Part shown: positions 224 to 21,763 of the stretch, piece by piece
How positions within the stretch are numbered: the first letter of the stretch is position 1
How the letters are laid out: each line of letters opens with the position of its first letter
Origin: Promethearchaeota archaeon
GTDB lineage: Archaea > Asgardarchaeota > Lokiarchaeia > Sigyniarchaeales > SOKP01
Reading direction: 5' to 3'
Assembly (NCBI GenBank): GCA_048938005.1
Contig: JBHLMQ010000031.1
Coordinates: 1-22,475 of the forward strand
Length of the DNA stretch: 22,475 nt
Program-made: the position numbers and the translations under genes
The notes under the pieces: model-generated
Database searches by the model: none
Told to the model about the DNA's origin: nothing
Seen by the model: only the letters and a program-made list of their open reading frames with translations

Positions 224-1012
224 ATGAAATTTATAGTGTGTGTAAAACAGGTACCAGATACAACTGAGGTTAAAATCGATCCTGAAACGAACACATTGAT
301 AAGAGAGGGTGTCCCCAGCATTCTGAATCCATTTGACCAGTTTGCTCTTGAGGAAGCTATTAAAATTAGACAAGAAGGTGATGAGATTATTGTAATCTCT
401 ATGGGTCCACCTCAAGCTAAAAAGGCGTTGTTGAAGTGTCTGGCATTAGGAGCAGATAAAGCAATCTTGCTAAGTGATAAAGTTTTTGCTGGTGCGGATA
501 CCTGGGCGACATCTTATACTCTTGTTCAGTGTATCAAGAAAATTGGTGATTTTAATATCATTTTTTGCGGTTTACAAGCTATTGATGGAGATACCGCACA
601 AGTAGGACCTGAAATTGCTGCTCAACTGGGTATACCTCAGATAACTTATGTGGAAAGTGTTGAAAAAGTAGAAGGAAAAAAACTGACAGCAAAGGTTCAA
701 ACAGATGATGGGTATAAAATCGTAGAAACAAGACTTCCGGTACTTATAACTGGAATGACTCCCTCTTCATTTGAACCAACTAATCCTCCCATGATGAGTA
801 TAATGAAAGCAAATAAGAAACCATTTTCTACCTGGAATGCAGATGAACTTGGGGGTAGTAAGGATAATTATGGATTGAATGGGTCATTAACTGAAGTTAT
901 TAAAGTTTATTCCCCACCAGCCAGACAGCAAGGTATTATTATTAAAGGGGAAACACCTGAAGCTTCGGTTCAAAAACTAATGGATTTATTATCTAAAGAT
1001 AAGGTGATTTAA
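224..1012 (+). CDS. etfB: Electron transfer flavoprotein beta subunit (FixA/EtfB family)
   Basis: VCVKQVPDT N-terminus; NPFDQFALEEA, SMGPPQA, FAGADTWATSY and GLQAIDGDTAQVGP motifs; 262 aa; directly followed by etfA. Confidence 0.97.
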   Translation: MKFIVCVKQVPDTTEVKIDPETNTLIREGVPSILNPFDQFALEEAIKIRQEGDEIIVISMGPPQAKKALLKCLALGADKAILLSDKVFAGADTWATSYTLVQCIKKIGDFNIIFCGLQAIDGDTAQVGPEIAAQLGIPQITYVESVEKVEGKKLTAKVQTDDGYKIVETRLPVLITGMTPSSFEPTNPPMMSIMKANKKPFSTWNADELGGSKDNYGLNGSLTEVIKVYSPPARQQGIIIKGETPEASVQKLMDLLSKDKVI

Positions 1013-1013
1013 T

Positions 1014-2207
1014 TTGATAATTGTAGATGAAGAAAAGTGTACAGGATGCGGGCTATGTGAAAAAGGATGCCCTTTTGGAGCGATTACAATTGTAGATAAA
1101 ATCGCAGTTATAGGAGATGAGTGTACTCTTTGTGGTGCCTGTGTCGATCAATGCAATGTAGGGGCAATTACAATTCAGCGGAAAAAAATTGAAGATGTTG
1201 ACTTGACACAATATCAAGATGTATGGATAGTTGCTGAAATTAAAGATGATAAAGTAAGAAATGTATCTTTTGAATTGCTAGGTAAGGCAATTGAGCTCGC
1301 TGATGAATTAAAACAAAAAACATGTGTCTTACTTTTAGGAGACAATGTAAAGAAATTCGCTCAAGATTTTTCAAACCGCGGTGCTAATAAAATATATGTT
1401 GCTGAACATGAAGCTCTCAAAAATTATTATACTGAAACATATTCTTCTGTGATCACCGGGATAATCTCAAAATACAAACCAAATATTGTTTTATACCCCG
1501 CAACTATAAATGGAAGGGATCTAGCACCAAGAGTTGCTGCTACTCTTGAATTAGGACTTACTGCCGATTGTACCGGGTTATCAATAAGAGATGGATTATT
1601 GTTACAAACAAGACCAGCTTTTGGTGGAAATATTATGGCTGATATTATTTGTCCTGTTACACGTCCCCAAATGGCGACAGTTAGACCCAATGTTATGGAA
1701 ATGGCACCAATTCAAGATGATAATAATGCAGAAATCATTGAAGTACCTGTAAAAGTAGATCTTCAAAGTTTAAAAGTAAAAACTAAAGAAGTAATCAGTG
1801 GAACTGCTTTTGAATGTGGTATTCCCGTTTGTGAAGCAGATACTATTGTATCTGGAGGAAGAGGTGTTGGTAGTAAAGAGAATTTTAAATTAATCGAGGG
1901 GCTAGCTAACATTTTAAATGCCGCTGTGGGAGCAAGTAGAGCTGCAGTCGACTTGGGTTGGATTCCTAAATCACAACAAGTCGGACAAAGTGGAAGTACT
2001 GTTTCTCCGAAGATTTATATCGCATGTGGAATATCTGGGACGATCCAACATTTAGTTGGAATGAAAAGCAGTGATATAATAATTGCAATAAATAAGGATC
2101 CTGAAGCTCCAATTTTCCAATTTTCCAATTATGGTATTGTTGGAGATCTTTGTGAAATTGTACCTCTATTAACTAAAGCATTAGAAAAAAAATTAAGAGA
2201 AAATTAA
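1014..2207 (+). CDS. etfA: Electron transfer flavoprotein alpha subunit with N-terminal 2x[4Fe-4S] ferredoxin domain (CarE-like architecture)
   Basis: N-terminal CTGCGLCEKGCP and CTLCGACVDQC; ETF-alpha motifs GLTADCT, TRPAFGGN, PQMATVRP, VSGGRG, GASRAAVD, QVGQSG, GISGTIQH. TTG start at 1014 with GGTGA at 1003-1007. Confidence 0.96.
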   Translation: MIIVDEEKCTGCGLCEKGCPFGAITIVDKIAVIGDECTLCGACVDQCNVGAITIQRKKIEDVDLTQYQDVWIVAEIKDDKVRNVSFELLGKAIELADELKQKTCVLLLGDNVKKFAQDFSNRGANKIYVAEHEALKNYYTETYSSVITGIISKYKPNIVLYPATINGRDLAPRVAATLELGLTADCTGLSIRDGLLLQTRPAFGGNIMADIICPVTRPQMATVRPNVMEMAPIQDDNNAEIIEVPVKVDLQSLKVKTKEVISGTAFECGIPVCEADTIVSGGRGVGSKENFKLIEGLANILNAAVGASRAAVDLGWIPKSQQVGQSGSTVSPKIYIACGISGTIQHLVGMKSSDIIIAINKDPEAPIFQFSNYGIVGDLCEIVPLLTKALEKKLREN

Positions 2208-2209
2208 AT

Positions 2210-4741
2210 TTAAAAAAGATCATCATCAAGATCCTCATTGCCTTCTGGGAATCTTCCGAATTCTTGCATGAATTGTTGCAGTAATTCACTTTCTCTTTTT
2301 GTATACATCGGATCTTCATCATAATTAAAATAACATGCTTTTGAATTTGTAGATAATTGTTCTTCTAATGCTAAACGTAAATTAGAAGTTCCTTGAATCA
2401 AGATAATCTCTTGATTCTCATTTAAGATCTGAATCACACCTTCAGTATCTGGTACATTTTGGATATTCTCGCTATTTAAATCTAACCATTTTTGAGGTGG
2501 TAATACAACTGGTGAGATCTCAAAACGTAAATCGCATCTAAGACATCGATTTGCTTCCTCTAAAGCTAATTTCTCATCAAAACCCACTTCAATTTCATTA
2601 AAGTTGTTTTTACGTTGATCTAATGATAATAATGGCATTTGTACTCGTTGTTTATCATAAAAGTTTTCATCACGTCCTAAATTTGTGTCTGGGGTGTCTG
2701 GTTCAACAAGCGCATCTTCAATTTCACCATCTCCTCCTAAATATTTATCAATTGAAGAAGCTGCCTTTCGGCCCATTTCAATAGCATCAACTATAGAGCT
2801 AGGACTATTAATAACTTCACCACCTGCAAAAATCCCTGCGATGTTTGTTTCTAATGTTCCCTCTTTTGCCTGTATTAGGCCTGAAGCTGAGATATTAATT
2901 TTACTTTCACTTCCTAAAAGAGATAAATCTGGAATTTGCCCAATTGCTAATATTACCATTTCAGTTTTAATCGATTTTGTATTAGTATTGTCAAACACAG
3001 GATTAAATAAATTTTCATCATCAAATACAGAATCACAATGTATTAACTCAACTTCAGATATCTCGCCATCCTTATCAATAACTTGTTTCGGACCCCAAGA
3101 ACAGTCAAGTGTTATCCCTTCATCTATTGCTTTCTGAATTTCCCATTCGTGAGCAGGCATTTCTTCTCGGCATTCTAAACAAGTTAATTGTATATCTTTA
3201 GCACCTAACCGTTTAGCTGTTAAAGCTACATCTATAGCTACATTACCTCCACCAATTACAATAACACTATCTGGAACTTTTACTTCTTCACCTAGATTAA
3301 CTTTTTTAAGAAAATCAAGACCCCATAGAATATTTGGTAAATTTAAGCCTTGAATATTAAGTTTTTTGGTATTTTGAGCTCCAAGTGCTAAGAAAATTGC
3401 ATTAAAACCTTGTTCATTCAAATTATCAAGTGATAAGTGCTCCCCTACAACTTTATCAGTTTGAACATCAATCCCTATGCTTAATATGTGTTCAAGATCT
3501 TTCTGAAGGACTGCTCGTGGTAGTCGATATTCAGGAATTCCTAGCCTTAACATACCTCCTATATAAGAATTTGCTTCAAAGACCGTAACTGAATGACCTA
3601 ATCTTCGTAAGTAATACGCTGTTGTTAATCCGGATGGACCTGAACCTACAATTGCTACTTTTTTCCCTGTTGAAGGCTTAATACTTATTTTAGACTTCCA
3701 TAATTCGCTATCATGATCCATAGCAAAACGTTTTAAGGCACAAATAGCAATAGGATCGTTAATTTGACTCCTACGACATTCTAGTTCACAATCATGAAAA
3801 CAAACTCTTCCAAGAACAGAGGGAAATGGTGTTTTTTCTCGAATCACTGCTGCTGCTTCAGCATATTTTTGCTCTGAAATTAAACGAATATATCGTGGTA
3901 CATCAATTTTTAATGGACAAGCATCTCTACAAGGCACAAGTAATCTTTCACGCTCAGCCCAGAAGATATCTTTATCTGTAAGTGCTCCTGTTGGACAAAC
4001 CTCAATACAAGCTCCACAGAATTTACATCCTGATTCTTTAAGAGAAGGCGCAAGACTTCCAACTATTGTTTCTCCGTTAGAATATACGAACCCTAAAGCC
4101 TCAATTCCACGAACATCTCGACATATTCTTACGCACCTAGTACAACCAATACATAATTCATAATTTCGAATAAAAAGTGGCTCGTCTTCAATAATCGCAC
4201 GCCCTTGAGGTCTATAACGTGGAATATCTTCTCGAATTCCGATATACTCTGCAACTCTTTGTAATTCACACCTTCCTAAGATTGGACAACAACGCTCTTC
4301 AACTGGAACATTAGGTGAGCATGGTTCTCGACTACAACCTTCACGTTGAGCACACATTAAGCATGCATGAGGATGGTTTGAAAGTATATTCATCAACTTT
4401 TCACGCCGTAAGGTTTGAATTTCTGATGTTTCCGTTGAAATCACCATCCCTTCTTTTATAATAGTACTACAAGATGTTTGTAATCCTTTGACCCCTTCTA
4501 TTTTAACAATACATAATTGACATCCCTGGTGTTCTTGAAAATTCATATTTTTAAACTTAGAATTACCTTGGAAAACTTCTTCATTTGGCTTTAAACCTAC
4601 CAATGGTGGTAAATCAGGGTGTGCACAAAGACTAGGGATATATATTCCAGCATTTTGAGAGGCTTTCAAAATAGTAGTTCCCTTCTTACCCTCAATTGTG
4701 ATCCCATTGATAGTTATTGGTATCATTTCCATTTTATACAC
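2210..4741 (-). CDS. bzdV: BzdV-like NAD(P)H:ferredoxin oxidoreductase ([2Fe-2S], His-ligated [4Fe-4S], 2x[4Fe-4S], GltD-like FAD/NAD(P)H module and C-terminal extra domain)
   Basis: IPSLC...GCQLC...TSC; HPHACLMC; CIGCTRCVRIC and CKFCGACIEVCP; GltD-type PCRDACP, LGRVCFHDCELECRR, GSGPSG, GGGNVAID, EEANRCLRCD; lies after bzdNOPQM. The real start may be ATG at 4732 or 4726 rather than GTG at 4741. Confidence 0.85.
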   Translation of the reverse strand: MYKMEMIPITINGITIEGKKGTTILKASQNAGIYIPSLCAHPDLPPLVGLKPNEEVFQGNSKFKNMNFQEHQGCQLCIVKIEGVKGLQTSCSTIIKEGMVISTETSEIQTLRREKLMNILSNHPHACLMCAQREGCSREPCSPNVPVEERCCPILGRCELQRVAEYIGIREDIPRYRPQGRAIIEDEPLFIRNYELCIGCTRCVRICRDVRGIEALGFVYSNGETIVGSLAPSLKESGCKFCGACIEVCPTGALTDKDIFWAERERLLVPCRDACPLKIDVPRYIRLISEQKYAEAAAVIREKTPFPSVLGRVCFHDCELECRRSQINDPIAICALKRFAMDHDSELWKSKISIKPSTGKKVAIVGSGPSGLTTAYYLRRLGHSVTVFEANSYIGGMLRLGIPEYRLPRAVLQKDLEHILSIGIDVQTDKVVGEHLSLDNLNEQGFNAIFLALGAQNTKKLNIQGLNLPNILWGLDFLKKVNLGEEVKVPDSVIVIGGGNVAIDVALTAKRLGAKDIQLTCLECREEMPAHEWEIQKAIDEGITLDCSWGPKQVIDKDGEISEVELIHCDSVFDDENLFNPVFDNTNTKSIKTEMVILAIGQIPDLSLLGSESKINISASGLIQAKEGTLETNIAGIFAGGEVINSPSSIVDAIEMGRKAASSIDKYLGGDGEIEDALVEPDTPDTNLGRDENFYDKQRVQMPLLSLDQRKNNFNEIEVGFDEKLALEEANRCLRCDLRFEISPVVLPPQKWLDLNSENIQNVPDTEGVIQILNENQEIILIQGTSNLRLALEEQLSTNSKACYFNYDEDPMYTKRESELLQQFMQEFGRFPEGNEDLDDDLF

Positions 4742-4839
4742 TCTCTAAAGTTAATTAACACTAGAAATAATCAAAAAAAAAATTATCCTATAATTCGATA
4801 ATTATGATTATAATTAATAAATAATAATGTGTTTATGGA

Positions 4840-5127
4840 TTACCAAGAATGAGTTATTGCTCTAGGTTCACAGGCTTTTACACAAGGCAACTCTTTTGTT
4901 TTACCACCAGGTTTACAAGGAGCACACGAGTATTTAATCTTCTTGCGGTGTTCTTCAGAAACACATGCTATAATTTCATCACTTAAAGGATCTAACTCAT
5001 TTTCTGCCATTTCAAGAACACCAGCAGGACATGCTTCTACGCATTTTCCACATGAATTGCATAAATCTGTATCTATGGTGATAAAATATTCTCCTGATCC
5101 ATTTTTGTATCCATAATTAGCTCGCAA
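4840..5127 (-). CDS. bzdM: Benzoyl-CoA reductase-associated ferredoxin (BzdM-like)
   Basis: ANYGYKNGSGEYFITIDTDLCNSCGKCVEACP N-terminus recalled as typical of BzdM-type ferredoxins; second Cys set CAPC...CVKAC. TTG start with AGGTGA upstream (5134-5139 on minus strand). Confidence 0.88.
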   Translation of the reverse strand: MRANYGYKNGSGEYFITIDTDLCNSCGKCVEACPAGVLEMAENELDPLSDEIIACVSEEHRKKIKYSCAPCKPGGKTKELPCVKACEPRAITHSW

Positions 5128-5143
5128 CGCAAATCACCTAAAT

Positions 5144-6031
5144 TTAAGCTTTTTTCTGTTCTTTTTCGACAAGAGCTTTGGCAAATAAAGCAGCACCAAT
5201 AGCTCCTGCAATTTGTGGATCGATATTTGGCTCAGGCGCTTTGATTTTCAATTCATCTTCGAGTCTTTTAACAACTCCAATATTTTTAGCTATACCACCT
5301 GTTATAGCAAACTTTTCTTCTATTCCAAGTCGTAATAATAGAGTTACTACACGATGTGCCATAGCTGAACAATAGGCTGCTAAAACTTTTTCTTTTGGCC
5401 ATCCTTTTCTAAGTAATCCTACTGCTTCTGATTTTGCGAATACTACACAGGTACTACTAACTGGCTCTGGTTCTTCATCTACTTGTAAAGACATTTTTCC
5501 CACATCATTAATATGTACTTGTAATAAATCTGCAAAAACTTCCATACCTCTTCCTGTTCCTGCCGCACATTTATCGTTCATAAGGAACGCAGTAACTTTC
5601 CCACGACTATCACATCGTATTGCTTTACAATCTTGACCACCCATATCTAATACAGTTCTTATTTCAGGACCATAGATAAAGTTTGCACCTCGTGCGTGGC
5701 ATGCAATTTCAGTAATAGCTCTCTTTGCAAATGGAACATTTACTCGTCCATACCCAGTTCCAACAACATATTGAATTTTATCTAGAGTTAAACCTGTATC
5801 TTCTAGTGCCCAATTCATTGCATTATTGGCACTATCTGGACTGTCACTTCCAGTACGCATACTACTATAACAGTAAATCTCTCCATTAACCATTACTACA
5901 GCTTGCGTACTGACTGATCCAACATCCACTCCAGCTGAAATGATATCACCATCTTCCCACTTTATATCGGGATTGGTATAACGAGATTCAGTCCATCTCC
6001 AATACTCTTCTTCTGATTCTGTTTTTGACAT
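5144..6031 (-). CDS. bzdQ: Benzoyl-CoA reductase bzd-type subunit Q (BcrA/BadF-equivalent ASKHA ATPase)
   Basis: EYWRW N-terminal extension; GVDVGSVS, GTGYGR, TEIACHARGA, LDMGGQDCK, MNDKCAAGTGRG, SSTCVVFAKSE, TGGIAKN. Confidence 0.92.
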   Translation of the reverse strand: MSKTESEEEYWRWTESRYTNPDIKWEDGDIISAGVDVGSVSTQAVVMVNGEIYCYSSMRTGSDSPDSANNAMNWALEDTGLTLDKIQYVVGTGYGRVNVPFAKRAITEIACHARGANFIYGPEIRTVLDMGGQDCKAIRCDSRGKVTAFLMNDKCAAGTGRGMEVFADLLQVHINDVGKMSLQVDEEPEPVSSTCVVFAKSEAVGLLRKGWPKEKVLAAYCSAMAHRVVTLLLRLGIEEKFAITGGIAKNIGVVKRLEDELKIKAPEPNIDPQIAGAIGAALFAKALVEKEQKKA

Positions 6032-6036
6032 TTTTT

Positions 6037-6822
6037 TTAACCTCCAACTTTATCTTGTGCTATAAGAGCAGCACCTAATGCACTTACAAATTCAGGGGAG
6101 ATTCTGTCTTTAGGTACCAAGAGTTCAAACCCTAGATTTCTATTCATTGCATCTATAAAACCTATATTTTTAGCCATTCCTCCTATCAATGCTACATCTT
6201 TCTCGATACCTATTTGACGAACCATACTTGTATTTCTATCAGCGATTGCGTCATGAACTGCTCGAATTATATCTTCCTTAGGAGTTTTTTGGTGAATTAA
6301 TGATACAACTTCGGATTCTGCAAAGATCGTACATTGAGCGTTCATAGGTATTTTTTTTGTTGATTTTAATGAAAGTTCTCCCATTACTTCAATATCAACT
6401 TCTAAAGCTCTCGACATGGCTTCAATAAATGCCCCTGCTCCTGCAGCACATTTTTCATTTATTCCAAAATCTTTAACCTTCCCATTTTCATCTAACTTTA
6501 CAACTAATCCCTCTTCTGCACCAATATCAATGATAGTACGAGTTGAAGGGAAAAGAAAAAATGTTCCTCGTCCATCACACGTTATAGTTGTGACATTATC
6601 GTCTGCAAAAGAAATAGCATCCATTCCTGCTCCAGTAACAGTAATATGCTTTATATCTTCACGTTTAATCTCCGCATTCTCAATAGCATTATTTAAAGTC
6701 TTATTTGCTGATTCTTCTTGATCAAATCCACTTAGTACCAAAGCTGTTGATAGTATTTTTTCATCTTTTAGAATAACAACTTTAGTATTTTTTGAACCAG
6801 CATCTATACCTACAGTTATCAT
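6037..6822 (-). CDS. bzdP: Benzoyl-CoA reductase bzd-type subunit P (BcrD/BadG-equivalent ASKHA ATPase)
   Basis: GIDAGSKNTK, TGAG, IDIGAEEG, NEKCAAGAGAFIEAM, MNAQCTIFAESEVVSLIH; 261 aa, between bzdO and bzdQ. Confidence 0.92.
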   Translation of the reverse strand: MITVGIDAGSKNTKVVILKDEKILSTALVLSGFDQEESANKTLNNAIENAEIKREDIKHITVTGAGMDAISFADDNVTTITCDGRGTFFLFPSTRTIIDIGAEEGLVVKLDENGKVKDFGINEKCAAGAGAFIEAMSRALEVDIEVMGELSLKSTKKIPMNAQCTIFAESEVVSLIHQKTPKEDIIRAVHDAIADRNTSMVRQIGIEKDVALIGGMAKNIGFIDAMNRNLGFELLVPKDRISPEFVSALGAALIAQDKVGG

Positions 6823-6845
6823 TTTAAACCATTTTTCATTTTTTT

Positions 6846-8168
6846 TTACTTTGAAATTTTTTGAATATTTAACGATTCCATAAAAGCATCTACACGCTTC
6901 ATAGTCCGCTCAAGGTCGAATTCTCTCTCATCACCCATATTACCTTCAAATGGCATTGTTGGAATCCCTGCTTTTTGGATAGCTAAACGATTCTCTGCAA
7001 TACCAAGGCTTAATCCTTCACAGCCTCGATTAAAATGTAAAAATACTCCATCTAATTTCCATTCTTTTGCGATTCTAATCATCATATCAGATTTAAGTTT
7101 TGGATGGTAAAAATGTTGCCATTCTGGCTTACTTAAATTCCATTCAGCAAGAGCGCGTAAAGCCTCATCTCGATTAGTTATTTCAATATCAGGAATAGAT
7201 CGTGGTCCCCATGTTCCATCCTCTTTCACTTCCCACAATCCAATAAGACCAAAAGTGTAAAGACTTCCAATAGAAACACAACCATATTGCTCCAAATACC
7301 GAAATATTCTTAAAAATGCCCAAGGTGGTTGAGTATCTGTCATAATTCGACATTGTTCATTTCCAACAGCAGCTATCCCTCTCTCTACACGATCTTTTAC
7401 TTCAGGATATAATTCTTTCTCATAAAAATCTGCTGTCCATTGAGATGATTTTCTTAAAGTCCCTAAGACATATAAAGAATACATCGTTTTTTCATCTAAA
7501 GGTGCAGGGATTGCTTTATTTAGTTCACATATTGCTGACCAATAATGACATGAACGAAATTCATTTTTAACTGCCTTAATTAATAATTCATCATCGTAAT
7601 CTCTTCCTGTAATTTTCTCCAGCCACTTAATGCCATCATGCATCTGTCCTACAATATAATTGATTTTGTGTTCAGTAAGTTCTTCATAGGGACCTACTGA
7701 TACGTCAATGCTAAACATAGGAATATCTCCTTCAAGATTGCTTGCTACTTGATACCACTTAGAATGTGAACAACAGATATGATCTTGCCAAATGAAGTCC
7801 GCTTTAGGGAATTCTTCCGAAAATTGTGGCCAAGCATATTTATTTATAAGTATAGATCCCCAATAATTACGCATATAAGAACATAGATCTCTGGCAAATC
7901 CCCTCGCTTCAGTTGCTTCTTGGCATTCCAAAGCGAATTTGTCATTATAAGCTACAGTTGCACCATATGGCTCTCCTGTTAAGGAATAAACATCATCCCC
8001 TAATCCAGCAGGAATAGCATCAAAAGACCATGCTCCTCCTGCCCATCGGAGCCCACCTTTTTCATGGGCTTCAGCAAAATCTCTATAATAATTCTCTCTT
8101 AAAGTTTTAGCTTTATTCCAACATTTCAATGGTTCTGTTGGATATTTTGTTTCCATCATTTTAATCAC
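6846..8168 (-). CDS. bzdO: Benzoyl-CoA reductase bzd-type subunit O (BcrB-equivalent, substrate-reducing subunit)
   Basis: [83 protein letters not shown]. The likely true start is ATG at 8159 or 8156, with GAGTGA upstream. Confidence 0.93.
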
Positions 8169-8174
8169 TCTTTT

Positions 8175-9299
8175 TTAAAAAAGATCCTCCTCTCTAATAA
8201 TTTCTAGAAATGCTTCCACTCGAGTCTTGAATTGGCCAAGTGGTACGGTTACATCAAATTCAAGAAATAATGTTTGAATACCAAGCTCATTTTCTAAAGT
8301 TTCCTTTATTATAACTGTATCAAGTTCATGTGGATCACAGAACTTCATCTGCATGATGATAGCTCCTTGTACATCATATTCTTTAGCTAATTGGGTAATA
8401 TAATCAAGCCTTGTTCGCTGTGGCCAATCTTTACTTGGGCAGGGTATACGGTTTATATATCTTTCTGCTATCGAAGTAAGAACATCTCCATTTGTATTTA
8501 CTAGTGTATTGAAATATCTAGTACCAGTACAGTGATCATCAATAACAAATCGTGCTCCTAAATCTTCGACCATTCCTATAAATTCAGTATCATCGTCTTC
8601 AGATCCTAATATCATTAATCGCTCACCTGAGTTATCTAATTCTCTTGATGGAAGTTTTTGTAAAAGTTCTTCCAAAGCTTTATTATGTTCTCTTTTATCG
8701 ACCATTTGCGAAGAGACGACCATATACATTGCTTCTAGACCTGTTAACGGAGGGTTAGGATTTTTTCTCAATTCATAGACTTGTTGTAAAAGTTGTCTAT
8801 TTTTATTCATTATCTCAATCCCTCGCTTGATATCCTCATCTGTAATCTGTTTTCCTGTCCATTCTTCAATTGCTTTCTTGAATGATTTTAATTCTTCTGT
8901 TAAATATGGGATGGCGTGAGGACTTTGAACATTCATAGGGTGTGGTAAATAATATTTAAAATCCACTGGAATATGGAGATCCCAACTTGTAAAAGCTTGT
9001 CTGATGTGAAGACAACTTTGAGCAATAGTGATTCCGTCAAGGTAATCAAACCTTCCCTTTAAGCCTTGTGCTAAACAATCACGACAGAAAGGGCAAAACA
9101 TAGCAAAAATATGGGGTTCTGAAACATCTTGTGGCTCATGGCTGCCTAATATTCTTACTGGTAAAATATCTGCAGCATAGAGAATCTCTTCAGGAACATA
9201 AGTACAGAAAGTTCCTATTACTTTTTCCCCAGTGCGTTCTTTCCATTTTTTTGCATAATCATGACGGTTTTCATACCATTCTTTAAATTGTTCAAACAA
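8175..9299 (-). CDS. bzdN: Benzoyl-CoA reductase bzd-type subunit N (BcrC-equivalent)
   Basis: WYENRHDYAKKWKERTG, FCTYVPEE, PVRILGSHEPQDV, MFCPFCRDCLAQGL, DDHCTGTRYF, KFCDPHE, GQFKTRVEAF; TTG start. Confidence 0.93.
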   Translation of the reverse strand: MFEQFKEWYENRHDYAKKWKERTGEKVIGTFCTYVPEEILYAADILPVRILGSHEPQDVSEPHIFAMFCPFCRDCLAQGLKGRFDYLDGITIAQSCLHIRQAFTSWDLHIPVDFKYYLPHPMNVQSPHAIPYLTEELKSFKKAIEEWTGKQITDEDIKRGIEIMNKNRQLLQQVYELRKNPNPPLTGLEAMYMVVSSQMVDKREHNKALEELLQKLPSRELDNSGERLMILGSEDDDTEFIGMVEDLGARFVIDDHCTGTRYFNTLVNTNGDVLTSIAERYINRIPCPSKDWPQRTRLDYITQLAKEYDVQGAIIMQMKFCDPHELDTVIIKETLENELGIQTLFLEFDVTVPLGQFKTRVEAFLEIIREEDLF

Positions 9300-9366
9300 T
9301 CTTTATATCCCCTTGATTCAATCTATTTTGGAAAGTTAAAAATAAATTAAAAATTTTATTAAACCT

Positions 9367-10413
9367 CTATTTTTGACATAATATTAGTATCCTAATTCCC
9401 TCACCGCGACGCATAACGTCAAAAGCTTCATTAATTTCTGAAAGTGGAAATTTGTGGGTAATTAATGGTTTGACTTGAAGTGATCCATTCTTAACTAAGT
9501 TAATAATATGGGGATAATCGACAGGACGACAACCAAGACTCCCCATTATTTCCATTTCTCGAAACATTACACGACCAATATCAAATCCATCCCAACGCTT
9601 GGGTGAATATCCCACAGCAACTAAACGGCCTCCAGTTCGTAAACTATTAAATGCTTGTTTCATAGTTGCGGGATGCCCTATAGCTTCAAAGGCTATGTCT
9701 GCACCTCCTCCTGTTATCTTTCTAATTGCACCAACAATTTCCCGCTCATCCCTATCTTTTGCTAAAATAGTTTCTACAGCACCAATTTGCTTAGCAACTT
9801 CTAATTTTTTTGGAAGAATATCAACAGCTATAGGTAAACCTCCAGCTGCTTTTATATTTTGAACAACATTTAAACCAATTCCCCCACAACCTATAACCAC
9901 CGCCCAATCACCAGGTCTTACTTGACCTCGATTTTTAACAGCATGGTAAGGTGTCGAAATAGCGTCCGAAATTATACAACTTTCTTCTAAGGACATTTCG
10001 GTCGGCAGGTGAACTACATCTTTTATAGGAACCTTAATTTGCTGAGCAAATCCTCCATCAATATGATTCCCTAGCATTATCTGATTAAGGCAAATATTTT
10101 CTCTACCTGTTCTACAATTAACACAATAACCACAGGAGAGCACAGCGGGAATAATGACGTGATCTCCAACTTTGAAATTTTTAACATCTTCATTAACCTC
10201 TTTAATGCGTCCTGATATCTCATGACCTAATATAAGAGGTGGCTGTTTAACTGTAGGTACACCATGTTCCAAATAACCAAAATCAGTATGACAAACTCCA
10301 CATGCTTCTATCTCTATTATGGCATGGCCCATTTCTCCGGAAATACTTGGGTCAGGATAATTACCATCTAATTTTAAAGGTTCCTTAACCTTTTCAAAAA
10401 CGGCTGCTTTCAT
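9367..10413 (-). CDS. had: 6-hydroxycyclohex-1-ene-1-carbonyl-CoA dehydrogenase (Zn-dependent MDR; Had/BzdX)
   Basis: CGVCHTDFGY, LGHEISG, VIIPAVLSCGYCVNC...C, GNHIDGGFA, DAISTPYHAV, GCGGIG; position between dch and bzdN. Confidence 0.85.
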   Translation of the reverse strand: MKAAVFEKVKEPLKLDGNYPDPSISGEMGHAIIEIEACGVCHTDFGYLEHGVPTVKQPPLILGHEISGRIKEVNEDVKNFKVGDHVIIPAVLSCGYCVNCRTGRENICLNQIMLGNHIDGGFAQQIKVPIKDVVHLPTEMSLEESCIISDAISTPYHAVKNRGQVRPGDWAVVIGCGGIGLNVVQNIKAAGGLPIAVDILPKKLEVAKQIGAVETILAKDRDEREIVGAIRKITGGGADIAFEAIGHPATMKQAFNSLRTGGRLVAVGYSPKRWDGFDIGRVMFREMEIMGSLGCRPVDYPHIINLVKNGSLQVKPLITHKFPLSEINEAFDVMRRGEGIRILILCQK

Positions 10414-10481
10414 CTCAATTTCCTACAATTTGTTTTATTATTATTTTAATTTAAACCTAATTCTTATTAAATTTAAGAAAA

Positions 10482-11264
10482 TTAACGATTCTGCCAATTG
10501 GGTGATCGCTTCTCTAAGAATGCTTTTAAACCTTCATTCGCATCATGAGTAGACATTAATTCCTTAAGATAAAACTCTTCGATTTCATCCAATTTTGTTT
10601 CAAAATCGAATCCTAAAGCTTTATTAAATGCCTTTTTTGTGTATTGCATAATAATTGTGCTTAAATCGTTAAAAGCTTCAATAAATTTAGTAAACTCTTG
10701 CTCATATGATTCTGTCGGGAAAACATAATTGGAAATTCCGAGCCTATGAGCTTCTTTAGCATCAATTATTTCACCTAACATGATAAGCTCAAATGCCTTT
10801 TTATTTCCTATAATTTGTGGAAAAGCTAAAACTGCAATTGGTGGCAATACTCCTACTTTTATTTCCGGTTGCCCAAATTTTGCTATATCTGATGTAAGAA
10901 CAATATCACAAAATATAGCGATTTCACAGCCTCCACCAAGAGCTGCCCCTTTAATGCTCGCTATTGTTGGACAATTTAACTTATTAAGCTTCCTGAAAAT
11001 GTCATGAAATTCTTTAATCATTTTAGGAGCTCTATCACCCATATGATCACCAATATCAACTCCAGCCGAAAAAGCTTTTCCATTATGATCAAAAATAACA
11101 GCTTTTAATGATTCATCTTCAATAAAACCTTCAAGAGCTTCATTAATTTGTTCCATCATCTCGATTGTTAAGATATTTAATGCTCCATTGTTGAATATTA
11201 TTTTCCCTATATTGTTTGCTTTTTCAACTATAATTAAATCATTTGACAAATACTTTTCACTCAA
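10482..11264 (-). CDS. dch: Cyclohexa-1,5-diene-1-carbonyl-CoA hydratase (crotonase family; Dch/BzdW)
   Basis: Crotonase motifs AFSAGVDIGDH, ALGGGCE, FGQPEIKVGVLPP (both catalytic Glu positions present), EGLKAFLEKR. The specific function is assigned from gene context. Confidence 0.8.
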   Translation of the reverse strand: MSEKYLSNDLIIVEKANNIGKIIFNNGALNILTIEMMEQINEALEGFIEDESLKAVIFDHNGKAFSAGVDIGDHMGDRAPKMIKEFHDIFRKLNKLNCPTIASIKGAALGGGCEIAIFCDIVLTSDIAKFGQPEIKVGVLPPIAVLAFPQIIGNKKAFELIMLGEIIDAKEAHRLGISNYVFPTESYEQEFTKFIEAFNDLSTIIMQYTKKAFNKALGFDFETKLDEIEEFYLKELMSTHDANEGLKAFLEKRSPNWQNR

Positions 11265-11326
11265 TTTGGCTATTTATTTCTTTTAATCTTTTTTATCCTG
11301 ATTTATAATAAAAAAATATTTTATAT

Positions 11327-12295
11327 TTATTTTAGTTTTGCTCCACATTTACCACAAAACTCAAAATCGGAGGGTAAACTTTTTGCTTGACAAGAAGGAC
11401 ACGTAACTGAAGGAGGTCCCCATAAAAATTCAGGATGAGGACTATCTCTTACACCTCTATAATTTGGAGGACGTTTTTCTACAAATGCAGACATTCCTTC
11501 AAGAGGTTCCCATGAAGCATAATGAATCGATAACCAATCTTTTGCATGTCCAATTGTTTGATGCCAAACGAGATCTTTCCAGAAATTAACTTGTTGTTTT
11601 GTATATCTCATACACTCTGGGAATTTGTCAATAAGTTTTTGGCAATATCTATCAACTTCTTCATCTATATCCTTATAAGGTACAACTGAATTTACTAAAC
11701 CCCATTCTAGTGCTTTTTCTGCTGAAATAGGTTCACATAGGAATAAGATTTCTCTGGCTCGGCGATCACCAACAATTATTGGGAGCCATTGAGTTGCTCC
11801 TCCACATGCTACAGACCCTACTCTTGTTCCTACTTGTCGAATAGTTGCATGATCTGCGCATACCGCTAGATCACATGCCATTTGCCATTCATTACCTCCA
11901 CCTGCAACAATACCATTGATTCTTGCTATAGTTGGTTTCCCAATATTGCGAAATACATCATGTGCTTCTTGAAAAATACTCATCCATTTCCAATACTCAG
12001 CAGGTTGGATAGTAAATCTATCTCTATATTCTTTAACGTCTCCCCCGGTACAAAAAGCTTTATTACCCGCTCCTGTTAATATGATGACTGCTACTTTATT
12101 ATCCCAGGCGGCATCATGAAAAGCTTCTATCATTTCCATTAAAGTAAGGGTTGAATAAGCGTTATAAACCTCTGGGCGATTAATTGTAACTTTCGCTTTC
12201 CAATCTTTTTTTTCATAAATTATTTCTTTAAAATCAAATTCTTTTGGATCTTTTGGTGTAAAGTTGGGTTCTTTTGTATAAGTCATTATACTCAC
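11327..12295 (-). CDS. oah: Ring-opening hydrolase, probable divergent 6-oxocyclohex-1-ene-1-carbonyl-CoA hydrolase (Oah/BzdY) with C-terminal zinc ribbon
   Basis: Crotonase fold: YNAY, AFCTGGDVKEY, GGGNEWQMACD, GSVACGGATQWLP, LCEPISA, KFPEC; C-terminal CPSC...CGKC; first gene of the cluster. The start may be ATG at 12286. Confidence 0.72.
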   Translation of the reverse strand: MSIMTYTKEPNFTPKDPKEFDFKEIIYEKKDWKAKVTINRPEVYNAYSTLTLMEMIEAFHDAAWDNKVAVIILTGAGNKAFCTGGDVKEYRDRFTIQPAEYWKWMSIFQEAHDVFRNIGKPTIARINGIVAGGGNEWQMACDLAVCADHATIRQVGTRVGSVACGGATQWLPIIVGDRRAREILFLCEPISAEKALEWGLVNSVVPYKDIDEEVDRYCQKLIDKFPECMRYTKQQVNFWKDLVWHQTIGHAKDWLSIHYASWEPLEGMSAFVEKRPPNYRGVRDSPHPEFLWGPPSVTCPSCQAKSLPSDFEFCGKCGAKLK

Positions 12296-12387
12296 ATCAA
12301 TACATACTTTCTTTGATTTCTTTTATTTTTATTATTATTCTTAGATAATTTTACAAATTAATTTAAAATTTGTTAATAGAAAACGTC

Positions 12388-12409
12388 TAGTGGGAATAAA
12401 ATTCCACTA
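12388..12409. promoter_or_regulatory. Inverted repeat TAGTGG-N10-CCACTA, candidate transcription factor site in the divergent promoter region
   Basis: TAGTGGGAATAAAATTCCACTA: perfect 6-bp arms (9 bp with one bulge), a GC-richer island in an AT-rich intergenic region between oah and the 93-aa ORF. Confidence 0.45.
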
Positions 12410-12517
12410 AAAACACAATTCAGATGTAATATAAAAAAGAGTAATATTTAAACTGAACATTATAATTATATCAAATGTAGATTTGAAAAAGAAAATAGTG
12501 AATGGTAGAGAATAACT

Positions 12518-12799
12518 TTGGTATCAGATAAAGAAAAAAATAAAGATGAAAAAAATCTAGATAATCCACTCAGAGGGAAGGACTGGGAAAAAGGATTTAC
12601 AGTTGAACAAGATAGGGTAAATGAATATGTAGAATTGTATCAATCAATTGGATATGAAGTACGTGTTGAACCTGCTACTCCTGATGAACAAGAGGAATGT
12701 CAAACATGTTTTAAAGCTGAATTTGATAATTTACGAACAATTTATATCAAGAGAACAAAAAATAAAGATAATGAAATTGATCTAGAAGAATTAGTCTAA
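12518..12799 (+). CDS. Small acidic hypothetical protein with CxxC motif
   Basis: 93-aa ORF filling the gap, TTG start, protein-like composition (WEKGF, EYVELYQSIGYEVRVEP, ECQTC, TIYIKR); divergent from the bzd cluster. Confidence 0.8.
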   Translation: MVSDKEKNKDEKNLDNPLRGKDWEKGFTVEQDRVNEYVELYQSIGYEVRVEPATPDEQEECQTCFKAEFDNLRTIYIKRTKNKDNEIDLEELV

Positions 12800-15999: not shown

Positions 16000-16042
16000 A
16001 CTAATTCCTCCGGCAAATAGATATTAAGTATAAAATAAAAGG

Positions 16043-17559: not shown

Positions 17560-19140
17560 ATGACTTGGCTTAATATTGGTGAAATAATTAATGTTAATGC
17601 TAATAAATATCCAAATAAACTTGCTCTGAAGGATGGAAGACGCCAATTAACATTTAAAGAATTGAATAAAAGAACTAACAAACTTGCTAATGGAATTCTT
17701 AAAAGTGGAATAAAAAAAGGTGATAAAATAGCAATTTTATCTAACAATTCAATTGAATTTATGGAAATCTATGTAGCAGCAGCTAAAGGAGGTTTTATTA
17801 TCGTTCCATTAAATTTTCGTCTACATCCAGATGATATTTCATTTATAATTAATAATTCAGATGCAAAATGGTTATTTGTAGAATCTCGATTCTATGAAGC
17901 TACTGAAAAAATATGGCAAAGAGCGAAAGAATTAGGATTTGAGAATATTGAACGCGTATTAATATCAGATAACCCAGCAGAAGGTTGGAAATATTATGAA
18001 GATCTTGTAGAAATGGGTGAAAACAGTTATCCCTCAAATGAAGTTAATACAGAAGATACATGGGTAATTCTCTATACTTCTGGTACAACAGGAAAACCAA
18101 AAGGTGTTATTCGTTCACATCGTTCTTATATAGCCTTTTTCTTAATTAATGAAGCAGAATTCTCTTTTACTCCTCAAGATTATGGTATGATTTTAATGCC
18201 ATTATCGCATGTAAATTCCACATTCTATTCATTTGTTTTTACTTATTTAGGAGCTCCTGTTTATATTCATATTGAATATAAATTTGATCCAGAGGAAGTT
18301 TTAAAAATAATAGATCGTGAGAAAATAACTTTTACATCGATGATCCCTACCCATTATAATCTAATATTAAGTCTTCCAGAAGAAGTAAAGCAAAAATATG
18401 ATCTTAGCTGTGTTAAAACATTATTAACTTCTTCGGCTCCTGCGACTAAACAAATGAAGCTAGATGTAATGAAACTTTTTAATAAGACGAAACTTTTTGA
18501 AGCTTACGGGTCAACAGAAGCAGGACTTGTTACACTCCTTAGACCCGAAGATCAGATGAGTAAATTAGGATCAATTGGAAAAGAATGCATTGGAACTGAT
18601 TGTATTAAATTATTGGGTGAAGATGGCAAACCTGTACCTATAGGTGAGATTGGTGAATTATATTCTCGCGGACCGCAAATGTTTGATAAGTACTATAAAT
18701 TACCAGAAAAAACAAAACAAGCTTTTATTGGAGAATATTTTAGTGCTGGCGATATGGGAAAAATAGATGAAGATGGTTTTTATTATCTTGTGGATAGGAA
18801 AGCTAATATGATTATAACTGGTGGAGAGCATGTTTATCCATCCGAAGTTGAAAAAGTTTTGGTTTCAAATCCATCGGTTATTGAATGTGCTGTGATTGGC
18901 TTACAAGATTATAAATGGGGAGAAAGAGTTACGGCCGTTTGTATTTTAAATAAAGACGTTATACCTTCAGATGAACTAACTAATGAGCTCCATCAATATT
19001 GCGAGGATAAGTTGGCCAGATTTAAAATCCCAAAACAGGTATTATACATTAATTCAGAAGAGATGCCTAGAACTGGCTCTGGAAAAGTTATACACAGAAT
19101 TTTACGTGAACGATTTAATAAACAACTTAATAATAAATAA
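17560..19140 (+). CDS. AMP-forming acyl/aryl-CoA ligase (ANL superfamily)
   Basis: YTSGTTGKPKG, YGSTEAG, SAGDMG, DRKANMIITGGEHVYPSEVE, PRTGSGKV; GAGG upstream. The substrate cannot be determined from motifs. Confidence 0.93.
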   Translation: MTWLNIGEIINVNANKYPNKLALKDGRRQLTFKELNKRTNKLANGILKSGIKKGDKIAILSNNSIEFMEIYVAAAKGGFIIVPLNFRLHPDDISFIINNSDAKWLFVESRFYEATEKIWQRAKELGFENIERVLISDNPAEGWKYYEDLVEMGENSYPSNEVNTEDTWVILYTSGTTGKPKGVIRSHRSYIAFFLINEAEFSFTPQDYGMILMPLSHVNSTFYSFVFTYLGAPVYIHIEYKFDPEEVLKIIDREKITFTSMIPTHYNLILSLPEEVKQKYDLSCVKTLLTSSAPATKQMKLDVMKLFNKTKLFEAYGSTEAGLVTLLRPEDQMSKLGSIGKECIGTDCIKLLGEDGKPVPIGEIGELYSRGPQMFDKYYKLPEKTKQAFIGEYFSAGDMGKIDEDGFYYLVDRKANMIITGGEHVYPSEVEKVLVSNPSVIECAVIGLQDYKWGERVTAVCILNKDVIPSDELTNELHQYCEDKLARFKIPKQVLYINSEEMPRTGSGKVIHRILRERFNKQLNNK

Positions 19141-19185
19141 GAAATTTACAAAATAACAATTATGTATTAAATTGGGTTAAAAAAA

Positions 19186-20394: not shown

Positions 20395-20455
20395 ATTAAA
20401 ATTTCATTATTTACTTTTTTAAAATTACCAGTAAACAGGTGGTGAGGCATCTTTA

Positions 20456-21682: not shown

Positions 21683-21763
21683 AAAACTCAGTTTAAGAAA
21701 AATAATAAAAAATTTTTAAGTAATTATAAATAAAAAAATTTGAAAGAAAGAGCGATATAAAAA

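Follow-up and report, generated by a model that had tools for sequence, protein, structure and literature searches.

A probable Bzd-type benzoyl-CoA pathway operon with a candidate second type of ring-opening hydrolase in a Lokiarchaeia-type Asgard archaeon

The stretch of DNA analyzed here, hereafter the window, comprises 22,475 nucleotides (nt), that is the first 22475 of the 36325 bases of contig JBHLMQ010000031.1 in the assembly GCA_048938005.1, a genome of a Lokiarchaeia-type Asgard archaeon. Its main subject is a gene cluster predicted to encode the central anaerobic benzoyl-coenzyme A (CoA) pathway, with a benzoyl-CoA reductase (BCR) of the Bzd type and, as its first gene, a crotonase ending in a zinc ribbon. 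According to the listing of open reading frames (ORFs), nine ORFs of the same strand (minus) fill the positions from 12295 to 2210; in the order of transcription they are the following (lengths in amino acids, aa; basis of the naming in brackets).

11327..12295, minus strand: candidate ring-opening hydrolase (previously named oah), MenB/BadI/Oah-like crotonase of 322 aa with a C-terminal Cys4 zinc ribbon (Pfam, NCBIfam, motif, distribution)
10482..11264, minus strand: Dch-like enoyl-CoA hydratase, 260 aa (ECH_1, 180.5 bits; synteny)
9367..10413, minus strand: Had-like protein of the Zn-dependent alcohol dehydrogenase family, 348 aa (ADH_N and ADH_zinc_N; synteny)
8175..9299, minus strand: BzdN, double-cubane [8Fe-9S] subunit, 374 aa (TIGR03190; PDB 8s02_B)
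6846..8168, minus strand: BzdO, catalytic aqua-[4Fe-4S] subunit, 440 aa in the longest ORF (TIGR03191; PDB 8s02_A)
6037..6822, minus strand: BzdP, ATPase subunit, 261 aa (BcrAD_BadFG; TIGR00241)
5144..6031, minus strand: BzdQ, ATPase subunit, 295 aa (TIGR03192; PDB MbdQ)
4840..5127, minus strand: BzdM-like ferredoxin, 95 aa, with two Cys motifs (Fer4 families)
2210..4741, minus strand: BzdV-like oxidoreductase, 843 aa (Pfam domains; position)

By their Pfam and NCBIfam families these ORFs read, in the same order, as crotonase, crotonase, zinc-dependent alcohol dehydrogenase, HGD-D (BzdN), HGD-D (BzdO), BcrAD_BadFG ATPase, again BcrAD_BadFG ATPase (BzdQ), 2x[4Fe-4S] ferredoxin and a fusion of a NuoG N-terminus with a GltD-like module. 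With the starts of the longest ORFs taken as gene starts, which applies to all gap lengths, the intergenic gaps amount to 62, 68, 67, 6, 23, 5, 16 and 98 nt in the direction of transcription, and none of the nine ORFs contains an internal stop. The first-pass annotation, made from the sequence alone, had described nine co-oriented genes with gaps below 100 nt, and the nine minus-strand ORFs with gaps of 5-98 nt agree with that description. The G+C content of the cluster is 33-38%, compared with 29.8% for the whole genome. The nine-gene order is repeated in Asgard-labelled loci at 72-96% amino-acid identity, and therefore it does not represent a chance arrangement.

Proteins were assigned to families by the equivalog cut-offs of NCBIfam (in bits), by Pfam and by sequence matches in the Protein Data Bank (PDB). 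BzdN (TIGR03190, 487.8 bits), BzdO (TIGR03191, 699.5 bits) and BzdQ (TIGR03192, 425.7 bits) exceed the respective cut-offs of 453.8, 448.6 and 380.2. BzdP was recognized as BcrAD_BadFG (167.1 bits) and by the activase domain model TIGR00241 (233.8 bits, cut-off 125.4), the latter being a general activase model, and no BzdP-specific model is among its NCBIfam matches; its assignment is backed by position and by 50-87% identity to the same-position gene of other loci. The genes follow the BzdNOPQ layout, i.e., two HGD-D subunits and then two different BcrAD_BadFG ATPases in the order N-O-P-Q. The best PDB matches by a wide margin are 8s02_A for BzdO (670.7 bits) and 8s02_B for BzdN (478.9 bits), which represent BzdNO of Aromatoleum sp. 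CIB (Fuchs et al., 2025; PMC11971306), while the subunits HadB/HadC of 2-hydroxyisocaproyl-CoA dehydratase reached only 107.5 and 187.8 bits and those of 3-methylbenzoyl-CoA reductase, MbdO/MbdN, only 47.2 and 107.9 bits; BzdQ matched the MbdQ structure with 213.3 bits. The models of double-cubane proteins, of HadB/HadC and of the Thauera-type BcrB/BcrC all remained far below their cut-offs with the window subunits. A bzd-type class I reductase, as the first-pass annotation had it, is thus well founded for the N, O and Q subunits, and since the Bzd models are passed and 8s02 is by far the best match, the N and O subunits do not side with the Hgd/Fld/Had dehydratases, the outcome which that annotation had named as contrary to its own reading.

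Two invariant cysteines are common to BzdP, BzdQ and a third activase located on the same contig, and they fit the bridging [4Fe-4S] cluster of the activase-type ATPase family. The active-site residues of the other two subunits were mapped by hand on the alignments with PDB 8s02, at the sites named in the available text of Fuchs et al. (2025; PMC11971306). BzdO is about 70% identical to its Aromatoleum counterpart (71 of the first 102 aligned columns, hand count). Compared with the BzdNO structures of Aromatoleum (PDB 8s02, 8s1t and 8s2r), the window proteins keep nine of nine cluster cysteines: BzdO retains the ligands Cys95, Cys128 and Cys380 together with the catalytic Glu65 and His131 and the benzoyl-pocket residues Trp46, Tyr97, Tyr298, Gln274, Leu302 and Leu383, and BzdN retains six of six double-cubane cysteines together with Arg53, Arg267, Arg290, His330 and Ser239. 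Two of the checked residues are replaced, Ser44 of BzdO by Gly and Gln324 of BzdN by Met. In the Aromatoleum enzyme Ser44 is described as hydrogen-bonded to the catalytic Glu65 (PMC11971306). None of the checked BzdO sites varies in 78 of 78 relatives, the Ser44 site being Gly throughout, and the six BzdN cysteines are likewise constant in 72 of 72; the Gln324 site of BzdN is occupied by Met in 21 of the 38 Asgard-clade sequences and by Gln in the remaining 17 and in all 34 others.

The gene of the BzdM-like ferredoxin is always the next after bzdQ in the archaeal and bacterial loci that were laid out, and the BzdV-like gene is the next after it in Asgard and Thermoplasmata loci and in most of the bacterial loci laid out (43-88% identity), bzdNOPQ-fdx-bzdV being a fixed six-gene core of Asgard, Thermoplasmata and many bacterial loci. 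The BzdV-like protein carries the Pfam domains Fer2_4, NADH-G_4Fe-4S_3, Fer4_Nqo3, Fer4_20, Pyr_redox_2 and DUF7508, that is 2Fe-2S and NuoG-type 4Fe-4S domains joined to a GltD-like FAD/NAD(P) module and to DUF7508. In the available text of Zhang et al. (2021; PMC8163825) the homologue in the Hermodarchaeota cluster is labelled ‘BzdV protein’, and BzdV of the Aromatoleum CIB cluster is referred to as a putative NADPH:ferredoxin oxidoreductase in what was available of the respective report (PMC5658619). The domain make-up, the fixed place after the ferredoxin gene and this published label point to the BzdV-like assignment. The electron-donor module proposed at first sight, a ferredoxin and a BzdV-like oxidoreductase after bzdQ, was thereby found arranged as in bacterial clusters.

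The two genes upstream of bzdN are less firmly placed. The Dch-like protein scored 170.8 bits with TIGR03189 (cut-off 292.5), generic crotonase models scoring equally or higher, and the Had-like protein scored 237 bits with TIGR03201 (cut-off 338.65), which is still its best family by about 40 bits. Both genes are syntenic in Asgard loci, with 72-89% identity for the former and 80-95% for the latter. The names dch and had, given without reservation in the first-pass annotation, are therefore weakened to Dch-like and Had-like here: gene context suggests both assignments, and for dch it is only the position that points to it.

The first gene of the cluster encodes a crotonase (Pfam ECH_1, 188.6 bits) with a Cys4 zinc ribbon (DZR) at residues 299-318. 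Its classification was based on hidden Markov model scores, motifs and distribution. Contrary to its previous designation as oah, this zinc-ribbon crotonase falls outside the Oah family: it scored 181.9 bits with the Oah model TIGR03200, the cut-off being 464.45 and the best stretch corresponding to positions 38-212 of the 360-position profile, and it scored slightly higher with the models of MenB (206.8 bits with NF005637, cut-off 380; 195.3 bits with TIGR01929, cut-off 342.7) and BadI (203.3 bits with TIGR03210, cut-off 467.6). MenB, a 1,4-dihydroxy-2-naphthoyl-CoA synthase, and BadI, a 2-ketocyclohexanecarboxyl-CoA hydrolase, are thus its best-scoring named families, both below the cut-off and with the zinc-ribbon tail being extra in the window protein; the MenB structure 2iex from PDB was matched with 192.7 bits. 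Among the proteins of the genome, 23 matched the Oah model, the zinc-ribbon crotonase being the best of them, and none reached the cut-off. A BadI or MenB sequence above the cut-off, sought for a reference tree, was present in none of five bacterial genomes searched.

Two canonical Oah proteins from bacterial loci (L046 and L052; 557.2 and 555 bits) served as references. In an eight-sequence alignment canonical Oah was 31-33% identical to the zinc-ribbon crotonase and differed from it by an insertion of about 50 residues and a C-terminal region, both absent from the zinc-ribbon crotonase, which has the Cys4 ribbon instead; in common they have the crotonase fold, a GS-x3-GG loop longer by one residue, many invariant N-terminal positions and their genomic company. 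A member of the family from an Acidobacteriota locus (L064) retains a part of the Oah-specific insertion. The loop reads GSVACGG in the zinc-ribbon crotonase, GSAPDGG in canonical Oah and GSFDGG in MenB. In the alignment with Escherichia coli MenB, where we take Gly86, Gly133, Gly156, Ser161 and Tyr258 to be functional residues and Asp163 to be the catalytic one (E. coli numbering), the positions of the first five are kept, Asp163 corresponds to Ala, and Tyr97 aligns to Ile.

In two Peptococcaceae loci an orthologue of the zinc-ribbon type immediately precedes bzdN, and in one Acidobacteriota locus another is found close to the cluster (63-66% identity). The family is large, since 7365 proteins at E <= 1e-30 were found among 8000 candidates scored, and its best 120 members are named in public sources only as ‘enoyl-CoA hydratase/isomerase family’ or as naphthoate synthase. 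The named ones among these 120 belong to Asgard archaea, Thermoplasmata, Chloroflexi, Armatimonadota, Acidobacteriia, Tectomicrobia and a Heliophilum, and annotated relatives at 62-80% identity come from Thermoplasmata, Chloroflexi, Armatimonadota and others.

The distribution of the two hydrolase types was followed across 301 evenly sampled genomes of the Asgard phylum, with BzdO counted at its cut-off, the zinc-ribbon protein at E <= 1e-90 and canonical Oah by its model. BzdO exceeded the cut-off in 46 of the 301 genomes (17 of the 90 high-quality ones); within the window's genus, 12 of the 22 other genomes carried it. The 46 BzdO-positive genomes were divided as follows.

Zinc-ribbon type only: 33
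Canonical Oah only: 12 (11 above the cut-off and one cut by a contig end)
Both hydrolase types: 0
Neither hydrolase type: 1 (a bin of 83% completeness)

Canonical Oah without BzdO was seen in four genomes. As the sampled genomes are related and not independent, no statistic is attached to this distribution. Considering its complementary character, the zinc-ribbon crotonase is probably a functional replacement of canonical Oah. The broader proposal, that the benzoyl-CoA pathway has in it a second type of ring-opening hydrolase, overlooked so far and taking the place of Oah/BamA in Lokiarchaeia as well as in two or more other Asgard families, we hold to be somewhat better than an even guess. The identity of this hydrolase affects how pathway completeness is scored in metagenomes. 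The gene bamA serves as a marker in surveys of anaerobic aromatic degradation; if the proposal is true, surveys looking for canonical oah/bamA score such organisms as pathway-incomplete, and the capacity of sediment archaea for opening aromatic rings is underestimated. A literature search for an alternative hydrolase in the benzoyl-CoA pathway found no description in the texts available, and the accessible parts of Farag et al. (2019) and Zhang et al. (2021; PMC8163825) make no mention of a non-canonical hydrolase in the Loki-type operon.

The genome harboring the window comprises 3.72 Mb in 101 contigs with 29.8% G+C. It encodes a full-length actin (442.1 bits with Pfam Actin), three more actin-family proteins and two paralogues of elongation factor 2 (EF-2), the relatives of which come from Asgard-labelled loci (43 of 55) or from an ‘uncultured archaeon’ (12 of 55), none being bacterial, with the best identity of 93%. 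The host is a Lokiarchaeia-type Asgard archaeon, as judged by these markers, so that the low-GC, possibly Asgard, archaeon supposed in the first-pass annotation has proved right. In one series of metagenome-assembled genomes the phylum labels of the submitters (Hod-, Hermod-, Thor- and Odin-) stand on genomes with 75-93% identical EF-2, and because of this disagreement such labels were taken as ‘Asgard’ only.

Of 375 relatives 80 loci were kept, with no Aromatoleum locus among them. In a quick IQ-TREE analysis the window's clade comprised 44 of the 80 rows with a Shimodaira-Hasegawa-like approximate likelihood ratio test (SH-aLRT) support of 100, all being Asgard-labelled or ‘uncultured archaeon’ save one contig labelled Halanaerobiales, and it was sister (SH-aLRT 90) to a 12-row clade of Aminicenantes/‘Eubacteriales’, the root lying on one very long paralogue branch and thus being unsure. 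The exceptional contig (L002, DAOVRZ010000160.1) is 7.9 kb long, its bzd genes are 79-94% identical to those of the window and nested in the Asgard clade, and it is probably a mis-binned Asgard contig. The cluster is present on two closed Asgard chromosomes (CP070695.1 and CP070831.1) and on contigs of 250-388 kb. The order found in the window, together with orf93 (see below), the MaoC genes, the acyl-CoA synthetase and the thiolase, recurs in Asgard loci, and a second Asgard group, with BzdO identity of 84-87%, has a different cluster layout. DNA nearly identical to the bzdQ-bzdN stretch was found in 12 sequencing runs of 5 studies, in sediment and mangrove metagenomes, a run being counted when at least half of the sampled words were present; for this stretch (positions 5144-9299) the listing contained no RNA data set.

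Comparison of bzdO with 43 Asgard loci gave nonsynonymous divergence (dN) of 0.03-0.10 and synonymous divergence (dS) from 0.74 to saturated; their ratio (omega) was 0.029-0.065 in 41 of the 43 loci, dS being saturated in the other two (L036 and L037). With such low omega and high dS, bzdO is old, under strong purifying selection and not recently exchanged. In ten of ten genomes with both proteins the identity of BzdO to the window (87-94%) exceeds that of EF-2 (79-89%), and with about 70% identity to the Aromatoleum protein across domains BzdO is an unusually slow-evolving catabolic enzyme. Because all but two of the checked residues are kept (the exceptions being BzdO Ser44 and BzdN Gln324) and BzdO evolves more slowly than EF-2, a genuine ring reductase appears more likely than a loosely ‘BCR-like’ enzyme. 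A suspected stop-codon recoding in BzdO of six genomes of one Asgard family (G086, G129, G103, G074, G080 and G067) was dismissed, the flagged TAG/TAA being the gene's own terminator at codon 428.

Taken together, the intact genes, the family membership of N, O and Q, the preserved ligands and catalytic residues, the purifying selection, the host lineage and the complementary distribution of hydrolases make us fairly confident that a Lokiarchaeia-type Asgard archaeon has in this stretch a working operon for the central anaerobic benzoyl-CoA pathway. The scheme that follows is predicted from sequence in respect of the substrate, all the enzymatic activities and the roles of the Dch-like, Had-like, hydrolase and BzdV-like proteins. 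The BzdM-like ferredoxin would deliver electrons to the BzdP/BzdQ ATPase pair, each subunit of which has the two cysteines expected for a bridging [4Fe-4S] cluster, and ATP hydrolysis would push the electrons through BzdN, by way of its [8Fe-9S] double cubane, to BzdO, whose [4Fe-4S] cluster carries a water. There benzoyl-CoA, or a very close analogue, would be converted to cyclohexa-1,5-diene-1-carbonyl-CoA by hydrogen-atom transfer as in the Aromatoleum enzyme, and the ferredoxin would likely be reduced again, in an NAD(P)H-linked reaction, by the BzdV-like flavo-iron-sulfur protein. The dienoyl-CoA would then be hydrated by the Dch-like crotonase, the resulting alcohol oxidized by the Had-like zinc-dependent alcohol dehydrogenase, and the ring opened by the zinc-ribbon MenB/BadI/Oah-like crotonase in place of canonical Oah. 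The product, 3-hydroxypimelyl-CoA (or pimelyl-CoA), could enter beta-oxidation by the neighboring MaoC hydratases, thiolase and Etf-linked dehydrogenase.

A number of observations weigh against this interpretation. The Dch-like, Had-like and hydrolase proteins are all below their equivalog cut-offs. In the zinc-ribbon crotonase, Asp163 of MenB is replaced by Ala and the Asp of the Oah loop is missing, and with the loop aspartate absent the chemistry of the hydrolase may differ. As the Gly at the Ser44 site of BzdO is present in the window and in 78 of 78 relatives, the substrate range of the whole clade could differ as well. The zinc-ribbon family is not strictly tied to Bzd, since 13 of the 46 sampled genomes with the zinc-ribbon protein show no BzdO; three of these 13 belong to the window's genus (92-95% complete) and two are single-contig genomes with copies of merely 56% identity. 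No protein of the genome reaches the cut-off for benzoate-CoA ligase, the best one scoring 260.9 bits against 375.25, and the contamination of the bin is estimated at 7.2%. Furthermore, an ATP-dependent reductase is unexpected and energetically awkward in a fermenter, as is noted in the available text of Farag et al. (2019; bioRxiv 10.1101/763623), and activity, transcript or protein of any Asgard BCR is not reported in the literature surveyed.

Beyond the cluster, genes of related predicted functions occupy much of the window.

224..2207, plus strand: EtfB and EtfA, the latter with a 2x[4Fe-4S] domain at its N-terminus; genes converging on bzdV and recurring next to it in 8 loci with 86-93% identity
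14223..15215, plus strand: two MaoC-type (R)-specific enoyl-CoA hydratases (syntenic identity of 69-88% for maoC1 and 57-62% for maoC2)
17560..22234, plus strand: acyl-CoA synthetase, thiolase, a lone HGD-D protein (408 aa) and a MaoC dehydratase (conserved gene string)

Both Etf subunits are encoded beside bzdV in six loci (L001, L016, L020, L021, L022 and L042) and EtfA only in two (L006 and L010). The synthetase-thiolase-HGD-D-MaoC string likely serves substrate activation and beta-oxidation. The acyl-CoA synthetase is syntenic in 13 Asgard loci (79-91% identity) and in 3 bacterial ones (52-53%), and its nearest solved relatives are FadD5/FadD13, a feruloyl-CoA synthetase and malonyl-CoA synthetases. 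The lone HGD-D protein (20456-21682, plus strand) is HadB-like (227.3 bits) and BcrB-like (166.1 bits) and is paired with the MaoC dehydratase; the protein has no second HGD-D subunit next to it, the closest activase lies at a distance of 8.6 kb, and the HGD-D/MaoC pair is conserved in five Asgard loci (77-82% identity). Positions 15340-17332, on the minus strand between the CoA synthetase gene and the MaoC genes, encode a SagB/nitroreductase-like protein of 429 aa and a family-less protein of 219 aa, which recur in Asgard loci at 72-76% and 55% identity, respectively.

The 13.8 kb of the contig past the window (positions 22476-36325) encode an uncharacterized 543-aa ORF, a ThiS/MoaD-like protein, an HdrD/TfrB-like protein, an AOR-type tungsten oxidoreductase, a ferredoxin-like protein, a PanE-like reductase and the third activase-type ATPase; farther along the contig are a second EtfAB pair and an AcrC-like acyl-CoA dehydrogenase (481.7 bits). 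The first part of this downstream gene order is shared with a relative genome, G006 (locus L171). A class II reductase (BamDBC) made up of the trio of HdrD-like protein, aldehyde:ferredoxin oxidoreductase and ferredoxin was considered and rejected, as the oxidoreductase is nearest to AOR of Pyrococcus (1aor, 365.3 bits, versus 245.8 bits for BamB).

This gene context would allow benzoyl-CoA to be formed from aryl acids or aromatic amino acids inside the cell. Instead of scavenging hydrocarbons or benzoate, the same machinery might remove the benzoyl-CoA (or its substituted or alicyclic analogue) that the cell itself produces from aromatic amino acids or phenylpropanoids, and the whole 36-kb contig would then be an aryl-acid fermentation island with its CoA ligase, HGD-D protein and activase, PanE resembling 2-oxoacid reductases, aldehyde:ferredoxin oxidoreductase, MaoC, thiolase, two Etf pairs and acyl-CoA dehydrogenase. 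The acs-thl-HGD-D-MaoC string conserved beside the operon, its continuation into the HdrD-like, AOR-type, ferredoxin-like, PanE-like and activase genes in both the contig and G006, the second EtfAB pair with the AcrC-like dehydrogenase, and the lack of a canonical benzoate-CoA ligase in the genome speak for such a role, which we nevertheless regard as a tentative, somewhat unlikely alternative: no evidence here fixes a substrate, the CoA synthetase has no informative relative, the HGD-D protein is devoid of a nearby beta partner, and the difference concerns only the origin of benzoyl-CoA and not the function of the nine genes. That function itself would be curtailed if the zinc-ribbon crotonase were a MenB-type condensing enzyme or a plain hydratase, in which case the pathway would end early here or be finished by genes located elsewhere, and no open-chain product would arise from the locus alone. 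The failure to reach the cut-off of any of the three families Oah, BadI and MenB, the loss of the aspartate present in both the MenB and Oah loops, the generic or naphthoate-synthase names of the family in public sources, and its presence in the 13 sampled genomes without detected BzdO are in line with this. We consider it distinctly unlikely, as canonical Oah occurs in none of the 33 BzdO-positive genomes with the zinc-ribbon type and in 12 of the 13 BzdO-positive genomes lacking it; no genome protein is closer to Oah than the zinc-ribbon crotonase, which is the first gene of the operon here and stands directly upstream of bzdN in Peptococcaceae; and the loop length and N-terminal positions are common with Oah, a part of the Oah insertion being kept in L064.

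The two other explanations that were weighed touch the reductase and the host. The HGD-D and ATPase genes belong to the same superfamily as the 2-hydroxyacyl-CoA dehydratases with their activators (Hgd/Had/Fld type), Pfam resolves only HGD-D and BcrAD_BadFG, and there are other HGD-D paralogues in the genome; yet the HadB model gave 134.7 bits (cut-off 750) and the HadC model 208.6 bits (cut-off 700), with the Bzd models passed, two different ATPase subunits are encoded instead of one activator, all six double-cubane cysteines of BzdN are present, and His131, which is Ala in HadB according to the available text of Fuchs et al. (2025; PMC11971306), is His in the window and in 78 of 78 relatives. 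A dehydratase is thus hardly credible. Equally improbable is the origin of the contig from a bacterial contaminant of the bin, i.e., from an ordinary bacterial benzoate degrader. The contamination estimate, the G+C content of the cluster above the genome mean and the Halanaerobiales label of the contig L002, 94% identical, might suggest it, but the 44-row clade is Asgard or ‘uncultured archaeon’ save for that very contig (SH-aLRT 100), the cluster resides on closed Asgard chromosomes and on the contigs of 250-388 kb, BzdO recurs in 12 of 22 other genomes of the same genus, and the less conserved neighbors (an M29 peptidase, 62-70%, and the SagB-like protein, 72-76%) match Asgard loci only. A functional benzoyl-CoA pathway operon of the Asgard host itself remains the reading we prefer.

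The bzd cluster of Aromatoleum sp. CIB (bzdNOPQMSTUVWXYZA), as presented in the available text of PMC5658619, has the same order of N-O-P-Q, ferredoxin and BzdV-type genes and includes the hydratase, dehydrogenase and hydrolase, with the ring-opening genes located downstream of bzdN, in contrast to their upstream location in the window. Further differences are that all ligases of the window genome are below the bzdA-type cut-off, that no BzdR-like regulator was seen in it, that the hydrolase is outside the Oah/BzdY family, and the two replaced residues of BzdO and BzdN. The class I reductases of Thauera type (BcrCBAD; MbdONQP, PDB 9g87 and 9gai) and HadBC/HadI (PDB 3o3m and 4eht) share the superfamily and the ATP-driven electron injection, the Thauera-type models TIGR02260 and TIGR02263 giving merely 41.5 and 134.5 bits with the window proteins.

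The Asgard Bzd cluster as such is already known, being in print since 2019-2021 for Lokiarchaeota and Hermodarchaeota. As far as the available texts show, Farag et al. (2019; bioRxiv 10.1101/763623) assigned the BCR of Lokiarchaeota CR_06 to the class Bzd, all four subunits being encoded by a single operon, Zhang et al. (2021; PMC8163825) described Hermodarchaeota contigs with four Bzd subunits, BzdV, ferredoxin, Dch, Had and a listed oah, reporting Bcr in 10 of 118 Asgard genomes, and Firrincieli et al. (2021; PMC8072921) discussed the same pathway. According to the accessible part of the data on Hermodarchaeota h02s_80, the listed oah is gene 9 of the contig and the run from BzdV to had covers genes 20-29, in difference from the nine contiguous genes of the window; that layout resembles the second Asgard group (L033, L034 and L041). 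With BzdO in 46 of the 301 sampled genomes and the cluster already published, the locus is, contrary to the first-pass annotation, not unusual for Asgard archaea, and the window adds one more genome to the published ATP-dependent Bzd-type clusters. Their bearing on carbon turnover in anoxic sediments and the energetic puzzle they pose for fermenters are likewise already in print. What may be new in the locus is the zinc-ribbon hydrolase, along with two features lying upstream of it.

12296..12517, strandless: conserved 222-nt divergent control region, the spacer separating the hydrolase gene from orf93; it contains A/T-rich TATA-like blocks and, at 12390-12407, the palindrome GTGGAATTTTATTCCCAC
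12518..12799, plus strand: orf93, small conserved protein of no Pfam family, travelling with bzd clusters

If the proposal on the hydrolase is true, orf93 and the control region are further unnamed parts of the same module. The gene orf93 was found in 33 of the 80 loci, 29 of the Asgard clade and 4 bacterial, its product varying from about 60 to 93 aa (L045:16961-17140, L069:15902-16090, L071:15933-16103 and L080:667-873 in the bacterial loci), and its place is directly after bzdV in the loci of the second Asgard group as well as in L045, L069 and L071, three of the four bacterial ones. Its invariant residues are W23, R33, E36, L40, Y41, C61 and C64, including a CxxC motif. No Pfam family was matched even at E <= 5. 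The AlphaFold2 (AF2) model has a small beta-alpha-beta fold with a mean predicted local distance difference test (pLDDT) value of 72.8, and its comparison with PDB by Foldseek gave no matches at E <= 0.001. It may correspond to one of the unnamed genes bzdS/T/U of Aromatoleum.

The 222-nt spacer is 74-90% identical at the nucleotide level to those of 10 Asgard loci, with 107 invariant columns, while in bzdO of these loci roughly every second synonymous site is different (proportion of differing synonymous sites, pS, 0.47-0.58); the non-coding spacer is thus conserved as strongly as coding DNA. It was also considered as a structured RNA, which was rejected, as there was no Rfam match (E <= 1) and no excess of folding (z-score 0.28); in view of this the spacer is likely a divergent promoter-operator region. 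A search for a palindrome regulon in the genome revealed one more copy at one mismatch, inside a 390-aa ORF on contig C85, and at three mismatches there were 4 matches versus 4 in the control, so that no regulon was found. Among the relatives, inserts occur within the cluster, namely of about 520 nt between bzdO and bzdP (L006 and L016) and of 0.8-2.9 kb between the ferredoxin gene and bzdV (L004, L006 and L016), and the control region of L004 (L004:4564-5879) is interrupted by about 1.1 kb of inserted DNA, next to which roughly 130 nt of the region are duplicated.

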